Of a stretch of 34,456 bases of DNA, positions 7,485 through 14,219 are shown in pieces (position 1 is the first letter of the stretch; each line of letters starts with the position of its first letter). The DNA lies in the IMG/VR virus record IMGVR_UViG_2609460219_000012. The stretch is one strand, 5' to 3'. The notes beneath the pieces are model-generated. The model was not told where the DNA came from, did no database searches, and saw only the letters and a program-made list of their open reading frames with translations. The DNA is from a virus (taxonomy: Duplodnaviria; Heunggongvirae; Uroviricota; Caudoviricetes). The position numbers and the translations under genes are program-made.

Positions 7485-7907
7485 ATGCAGCATGATTTAT
7501 TTGAACACGATCCGGCAATTCGCCAGTTAATCGGACATATTAATAACATTCCGGCCCCGGAACTGGAATCACGCTGGCCCCGTTCGGTGGTTGATCTGAT
7601 TGATGTTCTGGAAAACGAACTGAAACGCCAGAACGTCAGCAATCCCCGTGAGCTTGCCCGTAAACAGGCCGTTGCCCTGTCCTGTTTTCTGGGCGGACGG
7701 CAGTTTTACATCCCCTGCGGCGATACGATCCTGACCGCGTTACGCGACGATTTGCTTTACTGCCAGTTCAATGGTCGTAACATGGAAGAACTGCGTCGCC
7801 AGTATCGCCTGTCCCAGCCGCAGATCTACCAGATTATTGCCCGCCAGAGAAAGCTGCATACACGACGTCATCAGCCTGATCTGTTCTCACCTGAAAGCCA
7901 GAAATAA
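7485..7907 (+). CDS. C: C, late gene transcription activator, 140 aa
   Basis: 140-aa ORF matching recalled Mu C; paralogous to Mor; RBS gggggaaaat upstream. Confidence 0.8.
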   Translation: MQHDLFEHDPAIRQLIGHINNIPAPELESRWPRSVVDLIDVLENELKRQNVSNPRELARKQAVALSCFLGGRQFYIPCGDTILTALRDDLLYCQFNGRNMEELRRQYRLSQPQIYQIIARQRKLHTRRHQPDLFSPESQK

Positions 7908-7930
7908 CCGGCATCCTGCCGGTTATTTCC
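7904..7930 (+). terminator. Hairpin ATAACCGGCA-tcc-TGCCGGTTAT after C (end of middle transcript); weak U tract
   Basis: 10-bp perfect stem read directly, overlapping the C stop codon. Confidence 0.5.
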
Positions 7931-7998
7931 TGTCACCATAATCCCGCACCTGCCATCTGATTTTTTAGACTGCCATCAGAGCATTTTTTCAGGGAAGC

Positions 7999-8517
7999 AT
8001 GATGGCGGGGATACCAAAAAAACTGAAAGCCGCACTGCTGGCGGCAACGATTGCCGGTGGCGGTGTGGGTGGTTATCAGGAAATGACCCGTCAGTCTCTG
8101 ATCCATCTGGAAAATATCGCTTATATGCCTTACCGCGATATTGCCGGTGTGCTTACGGTCTGTGTGGGACATACCGGGCCGGATATCGAAATGCGCCGTT
8201 ACAGCCATGCGGAGTGTATGGCTCTCCTCGACAGTGATTTAAAACCGGTTTATGCGGCAATCGTTCGTCTTGTCAGGGTGCCGCTGACGCCATATCAGAA
8301 AACGGCGCTGGCAACGTTTATTTTCAACACCGGTGTTACCGCATTCAGTAAATCAACGCTGCTGAAAAAACTCAATGCCGGTGATTACGCCGGAGCGCGT
8401 GACCAGATGGCCCGCTGGGTGTTTGCCGCAGGCCATAAATGGAAAGGACTGATGAACCGTCGCGAAGTGGAAATGGCTATCTGGAATATCAGGGGGGCGG
8501 ATGACCTTCGCCAGTAA
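7999..8517 (+). CDS. lys: Endolysin (lysozyme) with Gly/Ala-rich N-terminal signal-anchor-release-like segment, 172 aa
   Basis: Matches recalled Mu Lys; N-terminal KLKAALLAATIAGGGVGGY is weakly hydrophobic; first gene after C as in Mu. Confidence 0.75.
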   Translation: MMAGIPKKLKAALLAATIAGGGVGGYQEMTRQSLIHLENIAYMPYRDIAGVLTVCVGHTGPDIEMRRYSHAECMALLDSDLKPVYAAIVRLVRVPLTPYQKTALATFIFNTGVTAFSKSTLLKKLNAGDYAGARDQMARWVFAAGHKWKGLMNRREVEMAIWNIRGADDLRQ

Positions 8518-8788: not shown

Positions 8789-9090
8789 CAATTGCAGCAC
8801 TCGTCCTGTGCCTGCCGTTGCTGCTGACAGGTTGCGGGAACTCGAAAAACGCACCCGTGCCATCGGTGGTGATCCTGCCCGAAACTGATGCAGAACTGAC
8901 GGAAGCAACGCCCGTTCCGCCCATGCCACAGCCCCTGACGTGGGGAGCATCCCTTCTCTGGAATGCTGACCTGTTGATGGCGCTCGGGCAGTGCAACCGC
9001 GACAAGGCATCAGTCCGGGAACAGGAGACCCGGAGGAAAGAAATTTATGAACGAAGACCAGAACCGGGCGGTGGCGCTGCTGCTCGCTGA
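8785..9090 (+). CDS. o-spanin-like outer-membrane lipoprotein, 101 aa (GTG start)
   Basis: Signal peptide with lipobox LLTGC, proline-rich mature part; GTG overlaps i-spanin stop. Confidence 0.55.
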   Translation: MTIAALVLCLPLLLTGCGNSKNAPVPSVVILPETDAELTEATPVPPMPQPLTWGASLLWNADLLMALGQCNRDKASVREQETRRKEIYERRPEPGGGAAAR

Positions 9091-9241
9091 ACTCTGGCAG
9101 GGGGATACCCGTGATATTCCCCGCCCGGCGGCGTATGACCTGCCTGTATTGTGTGCCGGTTGCGGTCGTGAGCTGCGGCCTGATGTGCTGAGACAGCAGC
9201 CGATGGCGAACTACTGNCACTGGTGCCGTGGAGCAGAATAA
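9047..9241 (+). CDS. Hypothetical small protein (64 aa) with CxxC motif
   Basis: ORF only; overlaps neighbours; contains one ambiguous base. Confidence 0.35.
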   Translation: MNEDQNRAVALLLAELWQGDTRDIPRPAAYDLPVLCAGCGRELRPDVLRQQPMANYXHWCRGAE

Positions 9242-9540
9242 TGGATTTGATTTCAGTTTTAGCGTTATGGCCTTACCTGTTGCCTGTTGTGGCCGGTGGG
9301 GCCGTCTGGGCAATGCGTCGTAGTTTTGCCAGCACTGAGCGTGTGGAGCGTCTTGAAAACCGGATGACCGAAATGGAAACCCGCTACGCCAGCATCCCTG
9401 GCACAGAAGATGTACACGAAATGCGCCTGCGAATTGCAGAGCTGTCCGGCGATATCCGGGTGCTGTCCCAGCGGGTGCAGTCATTTTCCCATCAACTGGA
9501 GCTGCTGCTTGAAAACGCAGTAAACCGGAGTAATTCATGA
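9241..9540 (+). CDS. Membrane protein with one TM helix and coiled-coil tail (99 aa from Met at 9241)
   Basis: Hydrophobic N-terminus LISVLALWPYLLPVVAGGAVWA followed by heptad-like region; Met at 9241 overlaps previous stop. Confidence 0.5.
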   Translation: MDLISVLALWPYLLPVVAGGAVWAMRRSFASTERVERLENRMTEMETRYASIPGTEDVHEMRLRIAELSGDIRVLSQRVQSFSHQLELLLENAVNRSNS

Positions 9541-9827
9541 TTAACGATATTCTGACCGAAGACCGTCGTCTGGTCATCTTGCGTTCCCTGATGGACTGCA
9601 ATAACGAAGCAAACGAGTCCATCCTTCAGGACTGTCTGGATGCATACGGACACAACGTTTCCCGCGATGTGGTTCGCGGCCAGATTGACTGGCTGGCAGA
9701 GCAGCAACTGGTCACCGTGGAAAACCTGCGCGGCTTTTATGTCGTAACGCTGACCTCCCGTGGTCAGGATGTGGCAGAAGGTCGTGCCCGCGTTACCGGT
9801 GTCAAGCGTCCTCGTCCCCGTGCATGA
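9537..9827 (+). CDS. Hypothetical protein (96 aa)
   Basis: ORF with overlapping stop/start coupling to neighbours. Confidence 0.5.
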   Translation: MINDILTEDRRLVILRSLMDCNNEANESILQDCLDAYGHNVSRDVVRGQIDWLAEQQLVTVENLRGFYVVTLTSRGQDVAEGRARVTGVKRPRPRA

Positions 9828-10414
9828 CAGGAGGCGTGATGGACAGGAAAACACGGGGCCGGGCTTCAAAAGTGGATTTACTGCCAGAAAACGTACGTAA
9901 AACGCTGCATGAAATGCTGCGTGATAAAGCGATCCCACAGGCCCGCATTCTGGAAGAAATTAACGCACTGATTGAAGACGCTGGCCTGCCGGATGAGATG
10001 AAACTCTCCCGTTCCGGTCTGAACCGTTACGCGACGAACGTCGAACAGGTAGGCCATAACCTGCGACAGATGCGTGAAATGACGTCAGCACTGACCGCAG
10101 AACTTGGCGACAAGCCAATGGGAGAAACCACAAAGCTGATTCTGGAAATGGCCCGCAGCCAGCTTTTTAAGGCCATGATGCGGCAAATCGAAAACCCGGA
10201 ATCTGACGTGGATATTGACCTGCTGAAAAATGCCATGCTGGCGGCACAGCGTCTGGAATCCACGGCAATGTCCAGCCACCGGCGCGAGAAAGAAATCCGC
10301 CAGGCATTCGCAGAAGAAGCGGCAAACGCCGTCAGTGAAGAACTGCGCGGGCAGGATGGTATCAGCGAAGAACTGGAGCAGCGTATCCGTGATGTGTTGC
10401 TGGGTAAAGCGTAG
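9824..10414 (+). CDS. Terminase small-subunit-like DNA-binding protein (Mu gp27-like; possibly gene D), 196 aa
   Basis: Position directly before the large terminase region; basic N-terminus. Assignment by synteny with Mu. Confidence 0.5.
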   Translation: MTGGVMDRKTRGRASKVDLLPENVRKTLHEMLRDKAIPQARILEEINALIEDAGLPDEMKLSRSGLNRYATNVEQVGHNLRQMREMTSALTAELGDKPMGETTKLILEMARSQLFKAMMRQIENPESDVDIDLLKNAMLAAQRLESTAMSSHRREKEIRQAFAEEAANAVSEELRGQDGISEELEQRIRDVLLGKA

Positions 10415-10473
10415 GAGTTACGTTATGAAAAATGATTACAAGGCGCTGCTAATCAGCGCCCATCGAAAGGCTT

Positions 10474-10962
10474 TTACTGTAGCCGGGTGTTCAGATACTC
10501 AAACGGTGATTCAATGTCAAGCTGTGATTCACCGAGCACTTTATATGGGAGCTTCATTGCGTAATACAAATAAGCTACTGCAAATTTTGTTTGTGCCGAC
10601 TGAGAAAGTCCGACAGGGATGTGCATAAGTTCGGTGTTATTGGCGAGTGCATTAGTTACGCAGAGAATCGTTGCTTGATTATGGCGTTCCAGAAGAACAC
10701 GCCAGACAACTAATGGAATTTCTGACCAGTCATCATCCTTCATCAGAAAATCCTCAATGGCGTTATCTGCGGCTTTTTCAAATTGCTTTCTGTAGCTAAT
10801 CGTTCTGATTTGCTCTATGCGTGGTGTGAATCGTTCATTCAGGGGCCAAAGGCGCTGAAGTGTTTCCCATCCGTTTATTGAGACAAATTGAACAGTATCC
10901 ATAGATTGCTTTAATTCTGTTTCACAAAATATTTCAAGTAGTTTTATTGCTTTTGGTGACAT
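10474..10962 (-). CDS. Hypothetical protein, 162 aa, opposite strand, low-GC pocket between terminase genes
   Basis: Only long ORF across 10629-10960 on either strand; RBS GAGGG 6 nt before ATG on minus strand; sampled GC roughly 26-45% versus ~50% elsewhere. No recognisable motif. Confidence 0.5.
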   Translation of the reverse strand: MSPKAIKLLEIFCETELKQSMDTVQFVSINGWETLQRLWPLNERFTPRIEQIRTISYRKQFEKAADNAIEDFLMKDDDWSEIPLVVWRVLLERHNQATILCVTNALANNTELMHIPVGLSQSAQTKFAVAYLYYAMKLPYKVLGESQLDIESPFEYLNTRLQ

Positions 10963-12718
10963 GACGTTCCCTCAGGTATTTAAAGAAAACCGAAGTATTA
11001 TGGCTGAAAAAATAATGGGGTATGAAAAAAATAGCCGGGGCAAAAAACTGATTCCGTCAAGTGAACCCCGTCAGATTGATCTTCAGGAAGAAGCAACCAA
11101 ACTTGGTGTCGAGATCGTTACAGACATCACTAACGCCCAGCCATCTAATGAACCGGTTTTTCTGGGCTATCAGCGCCGCTGGTTTGAGGATGAAAGCCAG
11201 ATTTGTATTGCTGAAAAATCCCGTCGTACCGGTCTGACATNGGCCGAAGCGGGCCGCAATGTCATGACGGCAGCAAAGCCGCGTCGCCGTGGCGGTCGCA
11301 ACGTTTTTTATGTGGGTTCCCGTCAGGAAATGGCGCTGGAATACATTGCCGCCTGTGCCCTGTTTGCCCGCGCCTTTAACCAACTGGCAAAGGCTGACGT
11401 ATGGGAGCAGACCTTCTGGGACAGCGACAAAAAAGAAGAAATCCTCACTTATATGATCCGTTTCCCTAACAGCGGATTTAAGGTGCAGGCGCTGTCAAGC
11501 CGTCCGTCTAACCTGCGTGGTTTGCAGGGGGACGTGGTGATTGATGAGGCGGCATTTCATGAAGCCCTGGACGAACTCCTGAAAGCGGCCTTTGCTCTCA
11601 CCATGTGGGGTGCCCGCGTGCGGATCATATCGACACATAACGGCGTCGATAACCTGTTTAACCAGTACATTCAGGATGCGCGCGAGGGGCGCAAGGATTA
11701 CAGCGTTCACCGCATCACGCTGGATGATGCCATCGCTGACGGGTTGTACCGACGTATCTGTTACGTCACGAATCAGCCGTGGTCGCCGGAAGCGGAAAAA
11801 GCCTGGCGTGATGGCCTGTACCGGAATGCGCCGAATAAAGAGAGTGCCGACGAGGAATACGGCTGCATTCCTAAAAAATCCGGGGGCGCTTATCTGTCAC
11901 GCGTGCTGATTGAAGCCGCCATGACGCCAGCGCGGGATATCCCGATTCTGCGTTTTGAAGCCCCGGACGATTTTGAATCGCTGACACCACAAATGCGCCA
12001 CGGCATCGTTCAGGACTGGTGTGAACAGGAGCTGCTCCCGTTGCTCGATGCGCTGTCGCCGCTCAATAAACACGTACTGGGCGAAGACTTTGCACGCCGT
12101 GGCGACCTGACGGTGTTTGTGCCGCTTGCCATCACGCCTGACTTACGCAAACGCGAATGTTTCCGCGTGGAGCTGCGTAATGTGACCTATGACCAGCAGC
12201 GACAAATCCTTTTATTCATTCTGTCCCGTTTGCCCCGTTTTACCGGCGCTGCATTTGATGCCACCGGTAACGGCGGTTATCTGGCAGAAGCCGCCCGTCT
12301 GATTTATGGCCCGGAGATGATCGACTGTGTGAATCTGACCGCATCCTGGTATCAGGAGTGGATGCCAAAACTGAAAGGCGAGTTTGAAGCGCAGAACATC
12401 ACGATTGCCCGGCACCAGACCACACTTGATGACCTGCTCCACATCAAGGTGGACAAAGGTATTCCGCAGATTGATAAGGGGCGCACAAAAGATGAAGGCG
12501 GTAAAGGCCGACGACATGGCGACTTTGCCGTGGCGCTCTGTATGGCTGTCAGGGCGTCTTATATGAATGGTTTTGTTATCGACGAGGACAGCATACAGGC
12601 GCTGCCACCACGCCACCGTGGTGATGATGTTGATAACGATGATTTTGATGATTATCACCAGTTTGAACGAGGGGCTGGTAATGGGCCGTATTCTGGATAT
12701 TTCCGGGCAGCCGTTTGA
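10961..12718 (+). CDS. Terminase large subunit (possibly gene E); true start may be Met at 11000 or 11015
   Basis: 585-aa ORF immediately upstream of portal; acidic/ATPase-like segments (VVIDEAAF). 5' end overlaps the minus-strand ORF start by 2 nt. Confidence 0.7.
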   Translation: MTFPQVFKENRSIMAEKIMGYEKNSRGKKLIPSSEPRQIDLQEEATKLGVEIVTDITNAQPSNEPVFLGYQRRWFEDESQICIAEKSRRTGLTXAEAGRNVMTAAKPRRRGGRNVFYVGSRQEMALEYIAACALFARAFNQLAKADVWEQTFWDSDKKEEILTYMIRFPNSGFKVQALSSRPSNLRGLQGDVVIDEAAFHEALDELLKAAFALTMWGARVRIISTHNGVDNLFNQYIQDAREGRKDYSVHRITLDDAIADGLYRRICYVTNQPWSPEAEKAWRDGLYRNAPNKESADEEYGCIPKKSGGAYLSRVLIEAAMTPARDIPILRFEAPDDFESLTPQMRHGIVQDWCEQELLPLLDALSPLNKHVLGEDFARRGDLTVFVPLAITPDLRKRECFRVELRNVTYDQQRQILLFILSRLPRFTGAAFDATGNGGYLAEAARLIYGPEMIDCVNLTASWYQEWMPKLKGEFEAQNITIARHQTTLDDLLHIKVDKGIPQIDKGRTKDEGGKGRRHGDFAVALCMAVRASYMNGFVIDEDSIQALPPRHRGDDVDNDDFDDYHQFERGAGNGPYSGYFRAAV

Positions 12719-14219
12719 TTTTGACGATGAAATGCAGACCCGCAGCGATGAGCTGGCAATGGTCATGAAGCGTACGCAGGAGCATCCTTCCAGTGGTGTG
12801 ACGCCGAACCGGGCCGCGCAGATGCTGCGTGATGCCGAACGCGGTGATCTGACCGCACAGGCTGACCTGGCCTTTGATATGGAAGAAAAGGACACCCACC
12901 TTTTTTCCGAACTGAGCAAGCGCCGCCTTGCCATTCAGGCGCTGGAATGGCGCATCGCTCCGGCACGTGATGCCAGCGCACAGGAGAAAAAAGACGCCGA
13001 CATGTTGAATGAATATCTGCATGATGCGGCGTGGTTTGAAGATGCCCTGTTTGATGCCGGTGATGCCATTCTCAAGGGTTATTCCATGCAGGAGATTGAA
13101 TGGGGCTGGCTGGGCAAAATGCGCGTGCCGGTGGCGCTGCATCATCGCGATCCGGCGCTGTTCTGCGCGAACCCCGATAATCTGAACGAATTACGTCTGC
13201 GTGATACGTCTTATCACGGGCTGGAGCTGCAACCGTTCGGCTGGTTTATGCACCGGGCCAAATCCCGCACCGGGTATGTCGGCACCAATGGCCTTGTGCG
13301 CACGCTTATCTGGCCTTTTATTTTTAAAAACTATTCCGTGCGTGATTTTGCAGAGTTCCTGGAAATTTACGGACTTCCCATGCGCGTCGGTAAATATCCG
13401 ACCGGCTCCACGAACCGTGAGAAAGCCACACTGATGCAGGCCGTGATGGATATCGGGCGACGTGCCGGTGGCATTATTCCGATGGGGATGACGCTGGATT
13501 TTCAGAGCGCCGCAGATGGTCAGTCAGACCCCTTTATGGCGATGATTGGCTGGGCAGAAAAAGCGATTTCAAAAGCCATTCTGGGCGGCACCCTGACCAC
13601 AGAGGCTGGCGATAAAGGTGCACGGTCGCTGGGTGAAGTGCATGATGAGGTTCGCAGGGAAATCCGTAACGCGGATGTGGGCCAGCTTGCCCGCAGTATT
13701 AACCGTGACCTGATTTATCCCCTGCTGGCACTGAACAGTGACAGCACCATTGATATTAACCGCCTGCCGGGCATTGTGTTTGATACCAGTGAAGCGGGTG
13801 ATATTACGGCACTGTCTGACGCCATTCCGAAACTGGCGGCGGGAATGCGTATTCCGGTCTCCTGGATACAGGAAAAACTCCATATTCCGCAGCAGGTCGG
13901 TGATGAAGCCGTGTTTACTGCTCAACCGGTCGTCATGGATAACGGTCCGCAGAAAGAGGCCGCATTATCCGCTGAAGATATCCCGCAGGAGGATGATATC
14001 GACCGGATGGGCGTCTCACCGGAAGACTGGCAGCGTTCGGTTGATCCCCTGCTGAAACCCGTCATTTTTTCTGTGCTGAAAGATGGCCCGGAAGCCGCCA
14101 TGAACAAAGCCGCTTCATTATATCCGCAGATGGATGATGCAGAACTTATCGACATGCTGACCCGTGCCATTTTTGTTGCCGATATATGGGGGCGTCTGGA
14201 TGCCGCAGCAGACCATTGA
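12681..14219 (+). CDS. H: Portal protein, 513 aa from Met at 12681
   Basis: Synteny and size match Mu H; RBS gagggg before ATG 12681; ORF track frame begins 12567 inside terminase. Confidence 0.8.
   Translation: MGRILDISGQPFDFDDEMQTRSDELAMVMKRTQEHPSSGVTPNRAAQMLRDAERGDLTAQADLAFDMEEKDTHLFSELSKRRLAIQALEWRIAPARDASAQEKKDADMLNEYLHDAAWFEDALFDAGDAILKGYSMQEIEWGWLGKMRVPVALHHRDPALFCANPDNLNELRLRDTSYHGLELQPFGWFMHRAKSRTGYVGTNGLVRTLIWPFIFKNYSVRDFAEFLEIYGLPMRVGKYPTGSTNREKATLMQAVMDIGRRAGGIIPMGMTLDFQSAADGQSDPFMAMIGWAEKAISKAILGGTLTTEAGDKGARSLGEVHDEVRREIRNADVGQLARSINRDLIYPLLALNSDSTIDINRLPGIVFDTSEAGDITALSDAIPKLAAGMRIPVSWIQEKLHIPQQVGDEAVFTAQPVVMDNGPQKEAALSAEDIPQEDDIDRMGVSPEDWQRSVDPLLKPVIFSVLKDGPEAAMNKAASLYPQMDDAELIDMLTRAIFVADIWGRLDAAADH

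Follow-up and report, generated by a model that had tools for sequence, protein, structure and literature searches.

A gene that faces backwards within a phage late operon raises the question of how it comes to be transcribed. In the stretch of DNA analysed here (34,456 nucleotides; hereafter the window), such a gene, ORF162, is found in a Mu-like prophage, in antisense orientation between the genes for the small and the large terminase (Table 1). The original prediction had placed a candidate sigma-70 promoter for this gene inside the 5' end of the large terminase gene, which would allow its expression in the lysogen at a time when the late operon is silent.

Table 1. Positions of genes and sequence elements at the ORF162 locus, in window coordinates
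Feature	Position	Strand	Remark
Small terminase (Mu gp27, PF11985)	9824..10414	plus	
Small late-strand gene, 67 aa	10425..10628	plus	begins 10 nt after gp27 stop
Low-GC variable segment	10430..11101	unstranded	absent from Mu
GC-rich 8-bp hairpin	10441..10461	minus	13 nt after ORF162 stop
ORF162, antisense accessory gene, 162 aa	10474..10962	minus	ATG at 10962
Shine-Dalgarno GAGGG of ORF162	10973-10969	minus	6 nt before ATG
Predicted transcription start	10989-10991	minus	6-8 nt 3' of −10, from standard sigma-70 geometry
Weak TerL Shine-Dalgarno GAAG	10992..10995	plus	within predicted antisense 5' UTR region
Candidate −10 hexamer CATAAT	11002-10997	minus	5/6 consensus; A-11 and T-7 present
Spacer between hexamers	11020-11003	minus	18 nt
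Candidate −35 hexamer TTCATA	11026-11021	minus	4/6 consensus; within TerL codons 8-9
Large terminase TerL (Mu gp28 homologue)	11000..12718	plus	start ATG 11000-11002

ORF162 is a real gene within a low-GC cassette

The cassette nature of the locus is seen directly in the comparison with Mu. Just 7 bp separate the gp27 stop from the gp28 start in Mu, and in the window about 630 bp of low-GC DNA lies between the two genes. The variable segment has 37-43% GC, compared to 51-60% in its flanks; across 10400-11100 the GC content is 0.365-0.43, compared to 0.51-0.62 outside it. At the DNA level, similarity to Mu ends at 10429 and is picked up again at 11102. The gp27/gp28 junction was found with at least five alternative contents. 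No match to the cassette was obtained by blastn among 5,426 complete E. coli genomes.

The ORF162 gene itself was found in at least three genomic contexts: in one it lies between gp27 and TerL, in another its neighbours are a DUF1804-type TerS and a gene of 67-72 aa, and in distant bacteria it stands beside Ner-type HTH or ParB genes. A gene whose cassette occurs in at least three contexts would not depend on any one host-operon promoter, which argues that ORF162 needs a promoter of its own. We consider it fairly likely that ORF162 is a horizontally mobile gene, placed backwards in the late (Plys) operon between the small and large terminase genes.

The divergence at the three codon positions of ORF162 is 0.27, 0.18, and 0.55, respectively, its family comprises 168 clusters, and its AF2 model has a pLDDT of 83.6 with a confident fold through residue 135. 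These codon-position statistics, together with the family and the confident structure model, show that ORF162 is a real gene. In addition, ORF162 is under purifying selection and must therefore be expressed. There is no upstream minus-strand gene from which read-through could come, because all of the neighbours are on the plus strand.

For the function of the protein, ORF162 alone gave no matches in Pfam, PHROGs, PADLOC, or NCBIfam, and 76 family members searched against Pfam, PADLOC, and PHROGs yielded nothing beyond a sub-threshold Csx15 match and a stray MDMPI_N match, both of which are taken as noise. Profile searches against PDB sequences found nothing meaningful, a Foldseek search of the model against the PDB found nothing, and a tblastn search of 50,697 phage records gave no match. 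An HEPN-type RNase, considered for the RVLLERH motif, was rejected: the His is unconserved, the structural scores are low, and ORF162 does not show the conserved Rx4-6H in a four-helix core that defines these enzymes. HI1480 of Haemophilus influenzae (PDB 1mw5, 162 residues) shares 5% identity with ORF162; there was neither a Foldseek match nor a profile-sequence match between the two, homology is not established, and the comparison suggests no function for ORF162. A literature search on HI1480 gave nothing useful; its gene lies in FluMu, a Mu-like prophage region of H. influenzae.

A small late-strand gene overlaps the 3' end of ORF162

The last ~50-51 codons of ORF162 are overlapped, on the opposite strand, by a small late-strand gene. 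This ORF is open in all of the 14 close loci, where 0.05-0.32 per locus would be expected, and in five of the six distant loci. A standalone homologue is annotated in E. coli RM8082, and the small proteins match PHROG 220 and PHROG 30922; when the small ORF was the query in a word-indexed protein search, the self-match alone came back. Synonymous change in ORF162 is reduced in the overlap (0.52 vs 0.32 per column, Mann-Whitney p = 3e-6), and the drop starts near codon 121. Both frames are thus conserved, each has independent coding evidence, and synonymous change is reduced, which is the pattern looked for in an antiparallel overlap.

Neither gene is an artefact of the other. For the small ORF, such an origin is opposed by the standalone homologue, the PHROG matches, the avoidance of stops, and the synonymous suppression, and for ORF162 it is opposed by the codon pattern in the 111 non-overlapped codons, the family size, and the fold. 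The pair of genes has a wide range, being present in enterobacterial Mu-like phages and as far away as prophages of Azospirillum, Thiobacillus, and Sulfitobacter. The small late gene is overlooked by gene callers when these retain the longer ORF alone.

The hairpin downstream of ORF162 (dG −21.8, z −2.5) falls within codons 6-13 of the small gene. All of the 11 loci have it, and three of its pairs show compensatory changes. The hairpin is without a canonical U-run and was not called in an intrinsic-terminator scan, and an Rfam scan of 10200-11300 with E up to 1 gave nothing. It is a candidate terminator or 3'-end stabiliser.

Sequence and geometry of the candidate promoter

A reading of the sequence and a consensus scan agreed on the minus-strand hexamers TTCATA and CATAAT, separated by 18 nt as had been predicted, which together match the consensus at 9 of 12 positions. 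The end of the −10 is 34 nt from the ORF162 ATG, compared to the ~35 nt claimed. The −10 has the A at position 2 and the T at position 6. The candidate −15/−14 positions are AG and not TG, and there is no extended −10. The leader of ORF162, counted from the predicted start, would be ~27-29 nt long, and the ORF162 relatives carry AAGGA/GAGG-type Shine-Dalgarno sequences at the equivalent position.

The predicted location inside the terminase gene applies to the −35, which lies within TerL codons, whereas the −10 overlaps the start codon and the spacer between the Shine-Dalgarno sequence and the ATG. An in-frame extension of TerL back to 10961 is not conserved, and the comparison of relatives corrects the annotation by placing the true TerL start at the ATG at 11000 instead of 10961. 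With this conserved start, the first three bases of the −10, CAT, are complementary to the start codon of TerL. The Shine-Dalgarno sequence of TerL is weak in the window, and relatives have GAGGG, GAAGG, or GGAAG at an equal distance. Compared to L026, the window has a 1-nt deletion at 12671 that shifts the 3' end of TerL.

The −10 region is invariant among relatives

The comparison set consisted of 14 distinct ORF162-bearing loci with 49-100% protein identity, from Escherichia, Salmonella, and Aeromonas and from two types of Mu-like phage. In all 14 of these loci CATAAT is invariant, and it lies 33-39 nt from the ATG throughout. In the MAFFT alignment (A4), the sole invariant block upstream of the ATG is TTnTCAGnCATAAT (11010-10997, minus strand); the columns of the region in which it lies average 61% identity, and among the other leader columns, 1 of ~36 is invariant.

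On the plus strand, TTnTCAGnCATAAT reads ATT-ATG-(G/A)CT-GAn-AA and encodes M-(A/T)-(E/D)-K. Its CAT corresponds to the start codon of TerL or, in the DUF1804-type phages, of the MADKLIQ gene, and 9 of the 13 invariant columns are also accounted for by this conserved N-terminus. The block might thus be conserved as the site at which translation of the divergent late gene is initiated, together with the N-terminus of that gene, or as a junction at which cassettes are exchanged, with ORF162 transcribed from elsewhere and the likeness to a −10 a coincidence. The related sequence TCAGCCATTAAT is present in the Mu-like prophages L003 and L004 with different cargo, which suggests that the block is possibly a conserved recombination or translation-start junction; in the same two prophages the near-copy TTCAGCCATTAAT persists upstream of TerL, and the gp27/gp28 junction is a recombination hot spot.

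However, four invariant columns have no coding explanation, namely the ATT before the TerL ATG and the wobble base of TerL codon 2 (the T of GCT/ACT). This ATT lies in the Shine-Dalgarno-to-ATG spacer of TerL and, on the minus strand, forms the AAT of the −10. Spacers and wobble positions are normally free to vary, and the Shine-Dalgarno sequence itself does vary. In addition, the consensus scan found no second promoter-like site on the minus strand in 10962-11100, and Mu-like phages without ORF162 have unrelated TerL start contexts. Judged from the alignment, the invariance of the −10 exceeds what TerL coding requires, and an initiation region or exchange junction with ORF162 transcribed from elsewhere is an improbable account of the block, although one that keeps some weight.

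The −35 region and the question of an activator

In contrast to the −10, the −35 TTCATA is not conserved. The best −35 sequences in the relatives match 2-4 of 6 positions at 16-18 nt, and the only recurring features of the region are a TT/TTC start and a T-rich stretch. Of the predicted sigma-70 promoter, the hexamer position, the distance, and the −10 stand, and the −35 lacks conservation. The poor, unconserved −35 and the lack of a TG extended −10 suggest that the promoter is either weak or activator-dependent.

Activator-dependent promoters, the middle and late promoters of Mu (Pm and Plys) among them, classically pair a good −10 with a −35 that is poor and unconserved, and the putative Plys −10 of the window is likewise CCATAAT (7936-7942). 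The ORF162 promoter might then be real but driven by an activator of the Mor/C type or by a host factor, with ORF162 expressed lytically or conditionally and not constitutively in the lysogen. Nothing, however, is conserved upstream of −20 across the loci in the alignment, and the only local similarity between the ORF162 upstream region and the dyad-containing region upstream of Plys is a T-run. CCATAAT is not enriched in the window, with 7 occurrences compared to 4.5 expected. Furthermore, the cassette is found in phages with different regulators and in non-terminase contexts, and expression of the antisense gene while the late genes are transcribed would clash with that of TerL. A C-dependent late promoter of the Mu type was rejected, having no upstream box in common with Plys and no enrichment of CCATAAT, and activator dependence of any kind appears decidedly improbable.

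Chance expectation of the hexamer match

In the consensus scan, the region 9000-14000 contained 3 comparable sites, against 3.9 +/- 1.8 in shuffles, and the entire window contained 16, which corresponds to 0.23 per kb per strand. When the 671-nt low-GC segment was subjected to dinucleotide shuffling, 5% of the trials yielded a hit with the −10 ending 20-60 nt upstream of the ATG. Because the scan count is within the shuffle range and the local shuffles reach this frequency, the hexamer match in the single sequence is only marginally above chance. These figures would also suit a functionless product of AT-rich DNA, with ORF162 silent or reached by read-through only, but this is very improbable, since 14 loci, with protein identities as low as 49%, share an unchanged −10 whose distance from the ATG is constant, purifying selection acts on ORF162, and no minus-strand gene lies upstream to supply read-through. 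The evidence for the promoter is carried by the conservation across the aligned loci and not by the match itself.

Overall, TTCATA/CATAAT is probably a real but weak sigma-70-type promoter, an ordinary type of element in an unusual layout. We hold, with moderate confidence, that the hexamers are the cassette's own sigma-70-type promoter for ORF162, a mobile accessory gene in a Mu-like late operon.

Proposed expression of ORF162

In this scheme, the RNA polymerase holoenzyme would bind the near-consensus CATAAT built on the TerL start codon, in a promoter with the weak −35 TTCATA at 18 nt and a T-rich spacer. We infer that transcription would begin near 10990, giving a ~28-nt leader with the GAGGG ribosome-binding site, and that the transcript would cover ORF162 and stop at or past the hairpin. 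Since no conserved activator site is visible and the cassette occurs in several unrelated contexts, the promoter would be expected to fire without the phage Mor/C activators, that is, in the lysogen. Expression of ORF162 in the lysogen, with the late operon silent, is plausible, as originally predicted.

During lytic growth, strong late transcription would pass head-on through the ORF162 promoter. The candidate promoter overlaps the TerL ribosome-binding site, and the entire predicted ORF162 mRNA would be complementary to the late mRNA; owing to this overlap and complementarity, the expression of ORF162 and that of the late genes should exclude each other.

A more far-reaching proposal, which we put forward only tentatively and regard as unlikely, is that the locus is a self-contained switch cassette, with the −10 fused to the TerL start, the 3' end co-encoded with a late gene, and mutually exclusive expression. 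If so, the exclusion would operate in three ways, in that the promoter would be occluded, the ribosome-binding site of TerL would be masked, and the sense and antisense RNAs would pair completely; the next late gene at the −10 would be TerL or its substitute. ORF162 and the small gene would then form a two-protein unit, for example for prophage defence or exclusion with a late-expressed partner.

If the promoter is active, a Mu-like prophage would express an uncharacterised 162-aa protein from within its silent packaging operon. Cargo expressed in lysogeny often has phage exclusion or host-fitness functions, for which the unannotated 168-cluster family would be a candidate. The layout would also offer a small natural system in which transcriptional interference and dual coding could be studied in phages.

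Comparison with known systems

Morons are recognised by added DNA that separates genes lying side by side in related phages and by deviating composition, and further by their own promoter, their own terminator, and expression from the repressed prophage (PMC3594210, PMC4378225). At the level of sequence, the ORF162 locus resembles a moron, with extra DNA in place of the 7-bp gap of Mu, a GC content below that of its flanks, a candidate promoter, and a conserved downstream hairpin. Like the morons HK97 gene 15, lambda lom, and bor, it carries one cargo gene, which is preceded by a promoter-like site and followed by a hairpin, and it lies inside an operon of late structural or packaging genes. 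Lambda bor lies on the opposite strand to the late genes, has its own promoter, and is expressed in lysogens; ORF162 is likewise oriented against late transcription. Unlike the known morons, ORF162 has a candidate −10 that is merged with the start codon of the late gene that follows, its 3' third overlaps a conserved late-strand gene, its candidate terminator is without a U-run, and its protein belongs to an uncharacterised family.

For the Pseudomonas Mu-like phages, accessory loci (regions of genomic plasticity) have been described in the head/packaging region (PMC4378225). These loci and the ORF162 cassette are alike in being variable-cargo hot spots in the late region of a transposable phage, in forming low-GC valleys, and in carrying cargo whose expression presumably does not need the late activator, whereas the Pseudomonas cassettes lie elsewhere in the genome. 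Among such accessory loci is an anti-CRISPR/aca locus with its own promoter. Anti-CRISPR cassettes run in the direction of the late genes and come with a repressor dedicated to them, Aca, whereas the ORF162 cassette contains no regulator gene and ORF162 has no match to PADLOC or other known families.

In coliphage 186, the lytic pR and the lysogenic pL interfere face to face. As predicted for ORF162 and Plys, a weak promoter faces a much stronger one, and silencing would be expected once the strong promoter fires. Unlike those of 186, the putative promoters of the ORF162 locus are ~3 kb apart (Plys near 7940 vs 11000). By analogy, coliphage 186 may illustrate a possible working mode of the ORF162 locus, and not a class to which the locus belongs.

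Hexamers and conservation of the -10 element

On the minus strand, TTCATA and CATAAT are separated by 18 nt, and the ATG of the antisense accessory gene ORF162 lies 34 nt further on, preceded by GAGGG, so that the coordinates and spacing in the original prediction were correct. The two hexamers match the consensus at 9 of 12 positions. Sites found by the same rule numbered 3 within 9000-14000, compared to 3.9 ± 1.8 in shuffled sequences, and 16 over the full window on both strands. When the 671-nt low-GC segment was shuffled with dinucleotides preserved, a site with its -10 ending 20-60 nt upstream of the ATG arose in 5% of the shuffles. These counts and the score indicate that, within the window sequence alone, the hexamer match is only marginally better than chance. 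A promoter-like pair on the plus strand (TTGAGA, 18 nt, TAGATT), which lies within ORF162 ~90 nt upstream of the large terminase gene (TerL, the Mu gp28 homologue), may be a chance product of AT-rich DNA.

The upstream regions of 14 distinct loci were compared, and CATAAT was present in all 14, at a distance of 33-39 nt to the ATG. When the 80 nt upstream of the ATG were aligned with MAFFT, the mean column identity was 61% and the sole invariant block was TTnTCAGnCATAAT, which contains the -10; only 1 of the ~36 leader columns between this block and the ATG was invariant. The best -35 among the relatives matched merely 2-4 of 6 positions. The reading as a promoter for the antisense gene is partly supported; its -35 is weak.

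The -10 is tied to TerL more closely than originally thought: the -35 does lie inside the terminase gene, within codons 8-9, but three bases of the -10, CAT, are the start codon of TerL read in reverse. TerL starts at 11000, as judged from the gene calls in relatives, which place its start 37-38 nt from that of ORF162, from the in-frame upstream extension, which is open for 5 to 64 codons and not conserved, and from the constant context of this ATG, which always follows a purine-rich Shine-Dalgarno sequence and always precedes M-(A/T)-(E/D)-K. A 585-codon ORF from 10961 was rejected as the TerL gene; the ATG of its 13-codon extension (10961-11002 region) overlaps the ORF162 ATG. At the other end of TerL, the window lacks one G at 12671 relative to a relative's locus (L026) that is otherwise 99.4% identical, which shifts the 3' end and lengthens the ORF by 12 codons, to 12718, so that it runs past the start of the portal gene near 12681. 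Because the window also has 17 Ns, this may be a sequencing error.

The conserved TerL N terminus can account for 9 of the 13 invariant columns. The remaining four, namely the ATT before the ATG and the wobble base of codon 2, have no such coding account, and this ATT is the AAT of the -10, including the critical T at -7. In addition, the Shine-Dalgarno sequence beside the invariant ATT varies freely, and the TerL start contexts are unrelated in Mu-like phages without ORF162. These three observations are the main evidence for selection acting on the -10 itself, and from sequence comparison it is very probably functional.

Coordinates of features in the window
Feature	Strand	Coordinates	Remarks
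MuA DDE domain		43-1332	
Mor-family activator		7485-7907	
Dyad AAATAACCGG-N7-CCGGTTATTT, then CCATAAT	+	7903-7942	~57 nt upstream of lysozyme ATG
CCATAAT, putative Plys -10	+	7936-7942	
Lysozyme		7999-8517	
gp27, small terminase		9824-10414	PF11985
gp27/gp28 junction		10415-11101	
Small late-strand ORF	+	10425-10628	67 aa
Hairpin		10441-10461	8 bp, GC-rich
ORF162	-	10474-10962	162 aa
Overlap of ORF162 and small ORF		10474-10628	~155 nt
Promoter-like TTGAGA/TAGATT	+	10878-10907	
GAGGG	-	10973-10969	
Invariant block TTnTCAGnCATAAT	-	11010-10997	
CATAAT (candidate -10)	-	11002-10997	
TerL start codon	+	11000	
TTCATA (candidate -35)	-	11026-11021	

The ORF162 cassette in a Mu-like phage

The genome in the window is that of a Mu-like (Muvirus-type) phage and extends from transposase through tail fibres. 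MuA is followed by a MuB-like AAA protein and then GemA, and lysozyme by DUF2730, gp27, the terminase large subunit, the Mu portal and MuF. The DNA flanking the candidate promoter shares 88-97% identity with Mu, D108, SfMu and many E. coli Mu-like prophages; the candidate therefore lies ~3 kb within the late operon that starts at the lysis genes. The stretch with the dyad and CCATAAT upstream of lysozyme probably comprises the Mor-family gene's end and the late promoter, Plys, together with its activator site.

Homology to Mu DNA ends at 10429 and restarts at 11102, and the GC content is 37-43% over 10400-11100 as opposed to 51-62% in the flanks; the ORF162 segment is a cassette. The gp27/gp28 junction (also in relatives' loci L001-L005) is a hot spot in Mu-like phages and carries at least five alternative contents. 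It is empty in Mu, where 7 bp separate the gp27 stop from the gp28 start, and holds 267 bp without an annotated gene in E. coli A21, two small genes in SE11, three in RM8082 and one in Yersinia phage Tongde; in both E. coli SE11 and RM8082, one small gene just upstream of TerL is antisense. In two relatives' loci (L003, ~990-1030; L004, ~815-853), a vestigial ATGGCTGAAAA follows TTAAT 35 nt upstream of a Mu-type TerL start, out of frame. It resembles the TerL start/-10 block of the window with one extra base, which suggests past recombination at the junction.

ORF162 is antisense in every locus and occurs in three contexts. In nine Mu-type loci it lies between gp27 and TerL, and in a second Mu-like phage type it is flanked by a DUF1804-type small terminase and by a 67-72-aa gene (MADKLIQ...) that lies before TerL. 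The third comprises homologues of 31-38% identity in assemblies of Nitrospirae, Thiobacillus, Sulfitobacter, Azospirillum and Rhodocyclaceae, where the neighbours are not terminase genes but Ner-type HTH_35 genes or a ParB_N gene. As a gene that moves among such differing transcriptional contexts, ORF162 would need a promoter of its own. In the Thiobacillus locus (L020, 2440-2477), a divergent Ner-type gene has its start codon 34 nt away from where the ORF162 homologue is inferred to start, echoing the layout in the window. ORF162 was not found in 50,697 deposited phage genomes or in 5,426 complete E. coli genomes.

ORF162 had no match in Pfam, PHROG, PADLOC or NCBIfam. Its homologues form 16 clusters (51-99% identity) in Escherichia, Salmonella, Aeromonas and phage MAGs, and a profile search of 1.8 billion representatives gave 168 clusters with E values of up to 1e-3, almost all of ~160 aa. 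Over codons 1-111 in nine loci, pairwise differences were 0.27, 0.18 and 0.55 at codon positions 1, 2 and 3, respectively, a clear signature of minus-strand coding. AlphaFold2 with the family alignment predicted a helical bundle with two short strands (pLDDT 83.6, pTM 0.81). ORF162 is a real gene.

The hairpin 13 nt past the ORF162 stop (dG -21.8 kcal/mol, z -2.5) is kept in 11 of 11 loci, with compensatory changes at three pairs. Its tail is just moderately U-rich, and a terminator scan made no call there; it is a candidate terminator or 3'-end stabiliser.

The overlapping small gene

The small ORF begins 10 nt past the gp27 stop, with GGAG upstream, and, on the strand opposite to ORF162, overlaps the final ~51 codons of that gene. 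It is open in 14 of 14 close loci, whereas under random synonymous recoding of ORF162 the expected share of open cases is only 5-32% per locus. Of 6 loci with distant ORF162 homologues, 5 have it again on the strand facing the homologue's 3' end, where it shows the pattern AF..A...G(A/V)S(L/F)..T...L..L. In Azospirillum (L023, 3026-3029), its start codon and the stop codon of the ParB_N gene before it overlap as ATGA. Over 55 aa, the protein shares 49% identity with the product of a stand-alone 63-aa gene annotated in E. coli RM8082, where ORF162 is absent and the antisense frames are full of stops. Four such small proteins matched PHROG 220 (minor head protein), all in one and the same segment, and two matched PHROG 30922. 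Within ORF162, synonymous divergence stays level at ~0.52 through codons 1-120, then drops to 0.23-0.36 for codons 121-162 (Mann-Whitney p = 3e-6). Because the ORF162 fold is confidently predicted through residue 135, both overlapping frames appear to be functional, and the two genes look like a conserved convergent overlapping pair with predicted dual coding. In a natural deletion derivative (L035, 2436-2654; IMG/VR UViG_2859720988_000002), the MADKLIQ gene continues in frame, at its C terminus, into the small gene, and ORF162 is gone save for its last ~23 codons.

Alternative explanations and proposed mechanism

The block could be conserved solely as a translation start or a recombination junction, as a near-copy, TCAGCCATTAAT, remains upstream of TerL in prophages with other cargo; this, however, leaves the four non-coding invariant columns unexplained. 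Alternatively, activator-dependent promoters, the Mu middle and late ones among them, combine a good -10 with a poor -35 as here, and the putative Plys -10 has the same CCATAAT. However, no conservation was seen upstream of -20, the ORF162 upstream region does not resemble the region upstream of Plys that contains the dyad, and CCATAAT is not enriched. Pure chance is unlikely, because the -10 is conserved in relatives and no upstream minus-strand gene could supply read-through.

A weak sigma-70-type promoter would start transcription near 10990, against the late operon. Late transcription and ORF162 expression would be expected to interfere mutually, because the promoter overlaps the TerL Shine-Dalgarno sequence and start codon and the ORF162 transcript would be wholly complementary to the late mRNA. 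The unusual parts of the locus are its layout and the overlapping small gene. Morons, by definition, possess a promoter and terminator of their own, are expressed in repressed prophages and have a GC content unlike that of their neighbours (PMC3594210, PMC4378225). By analogy, the promoter may fire in the lysogen, and the element is, in kind, a predicted ordinary moron promoter for an uncharacterised cargo family.
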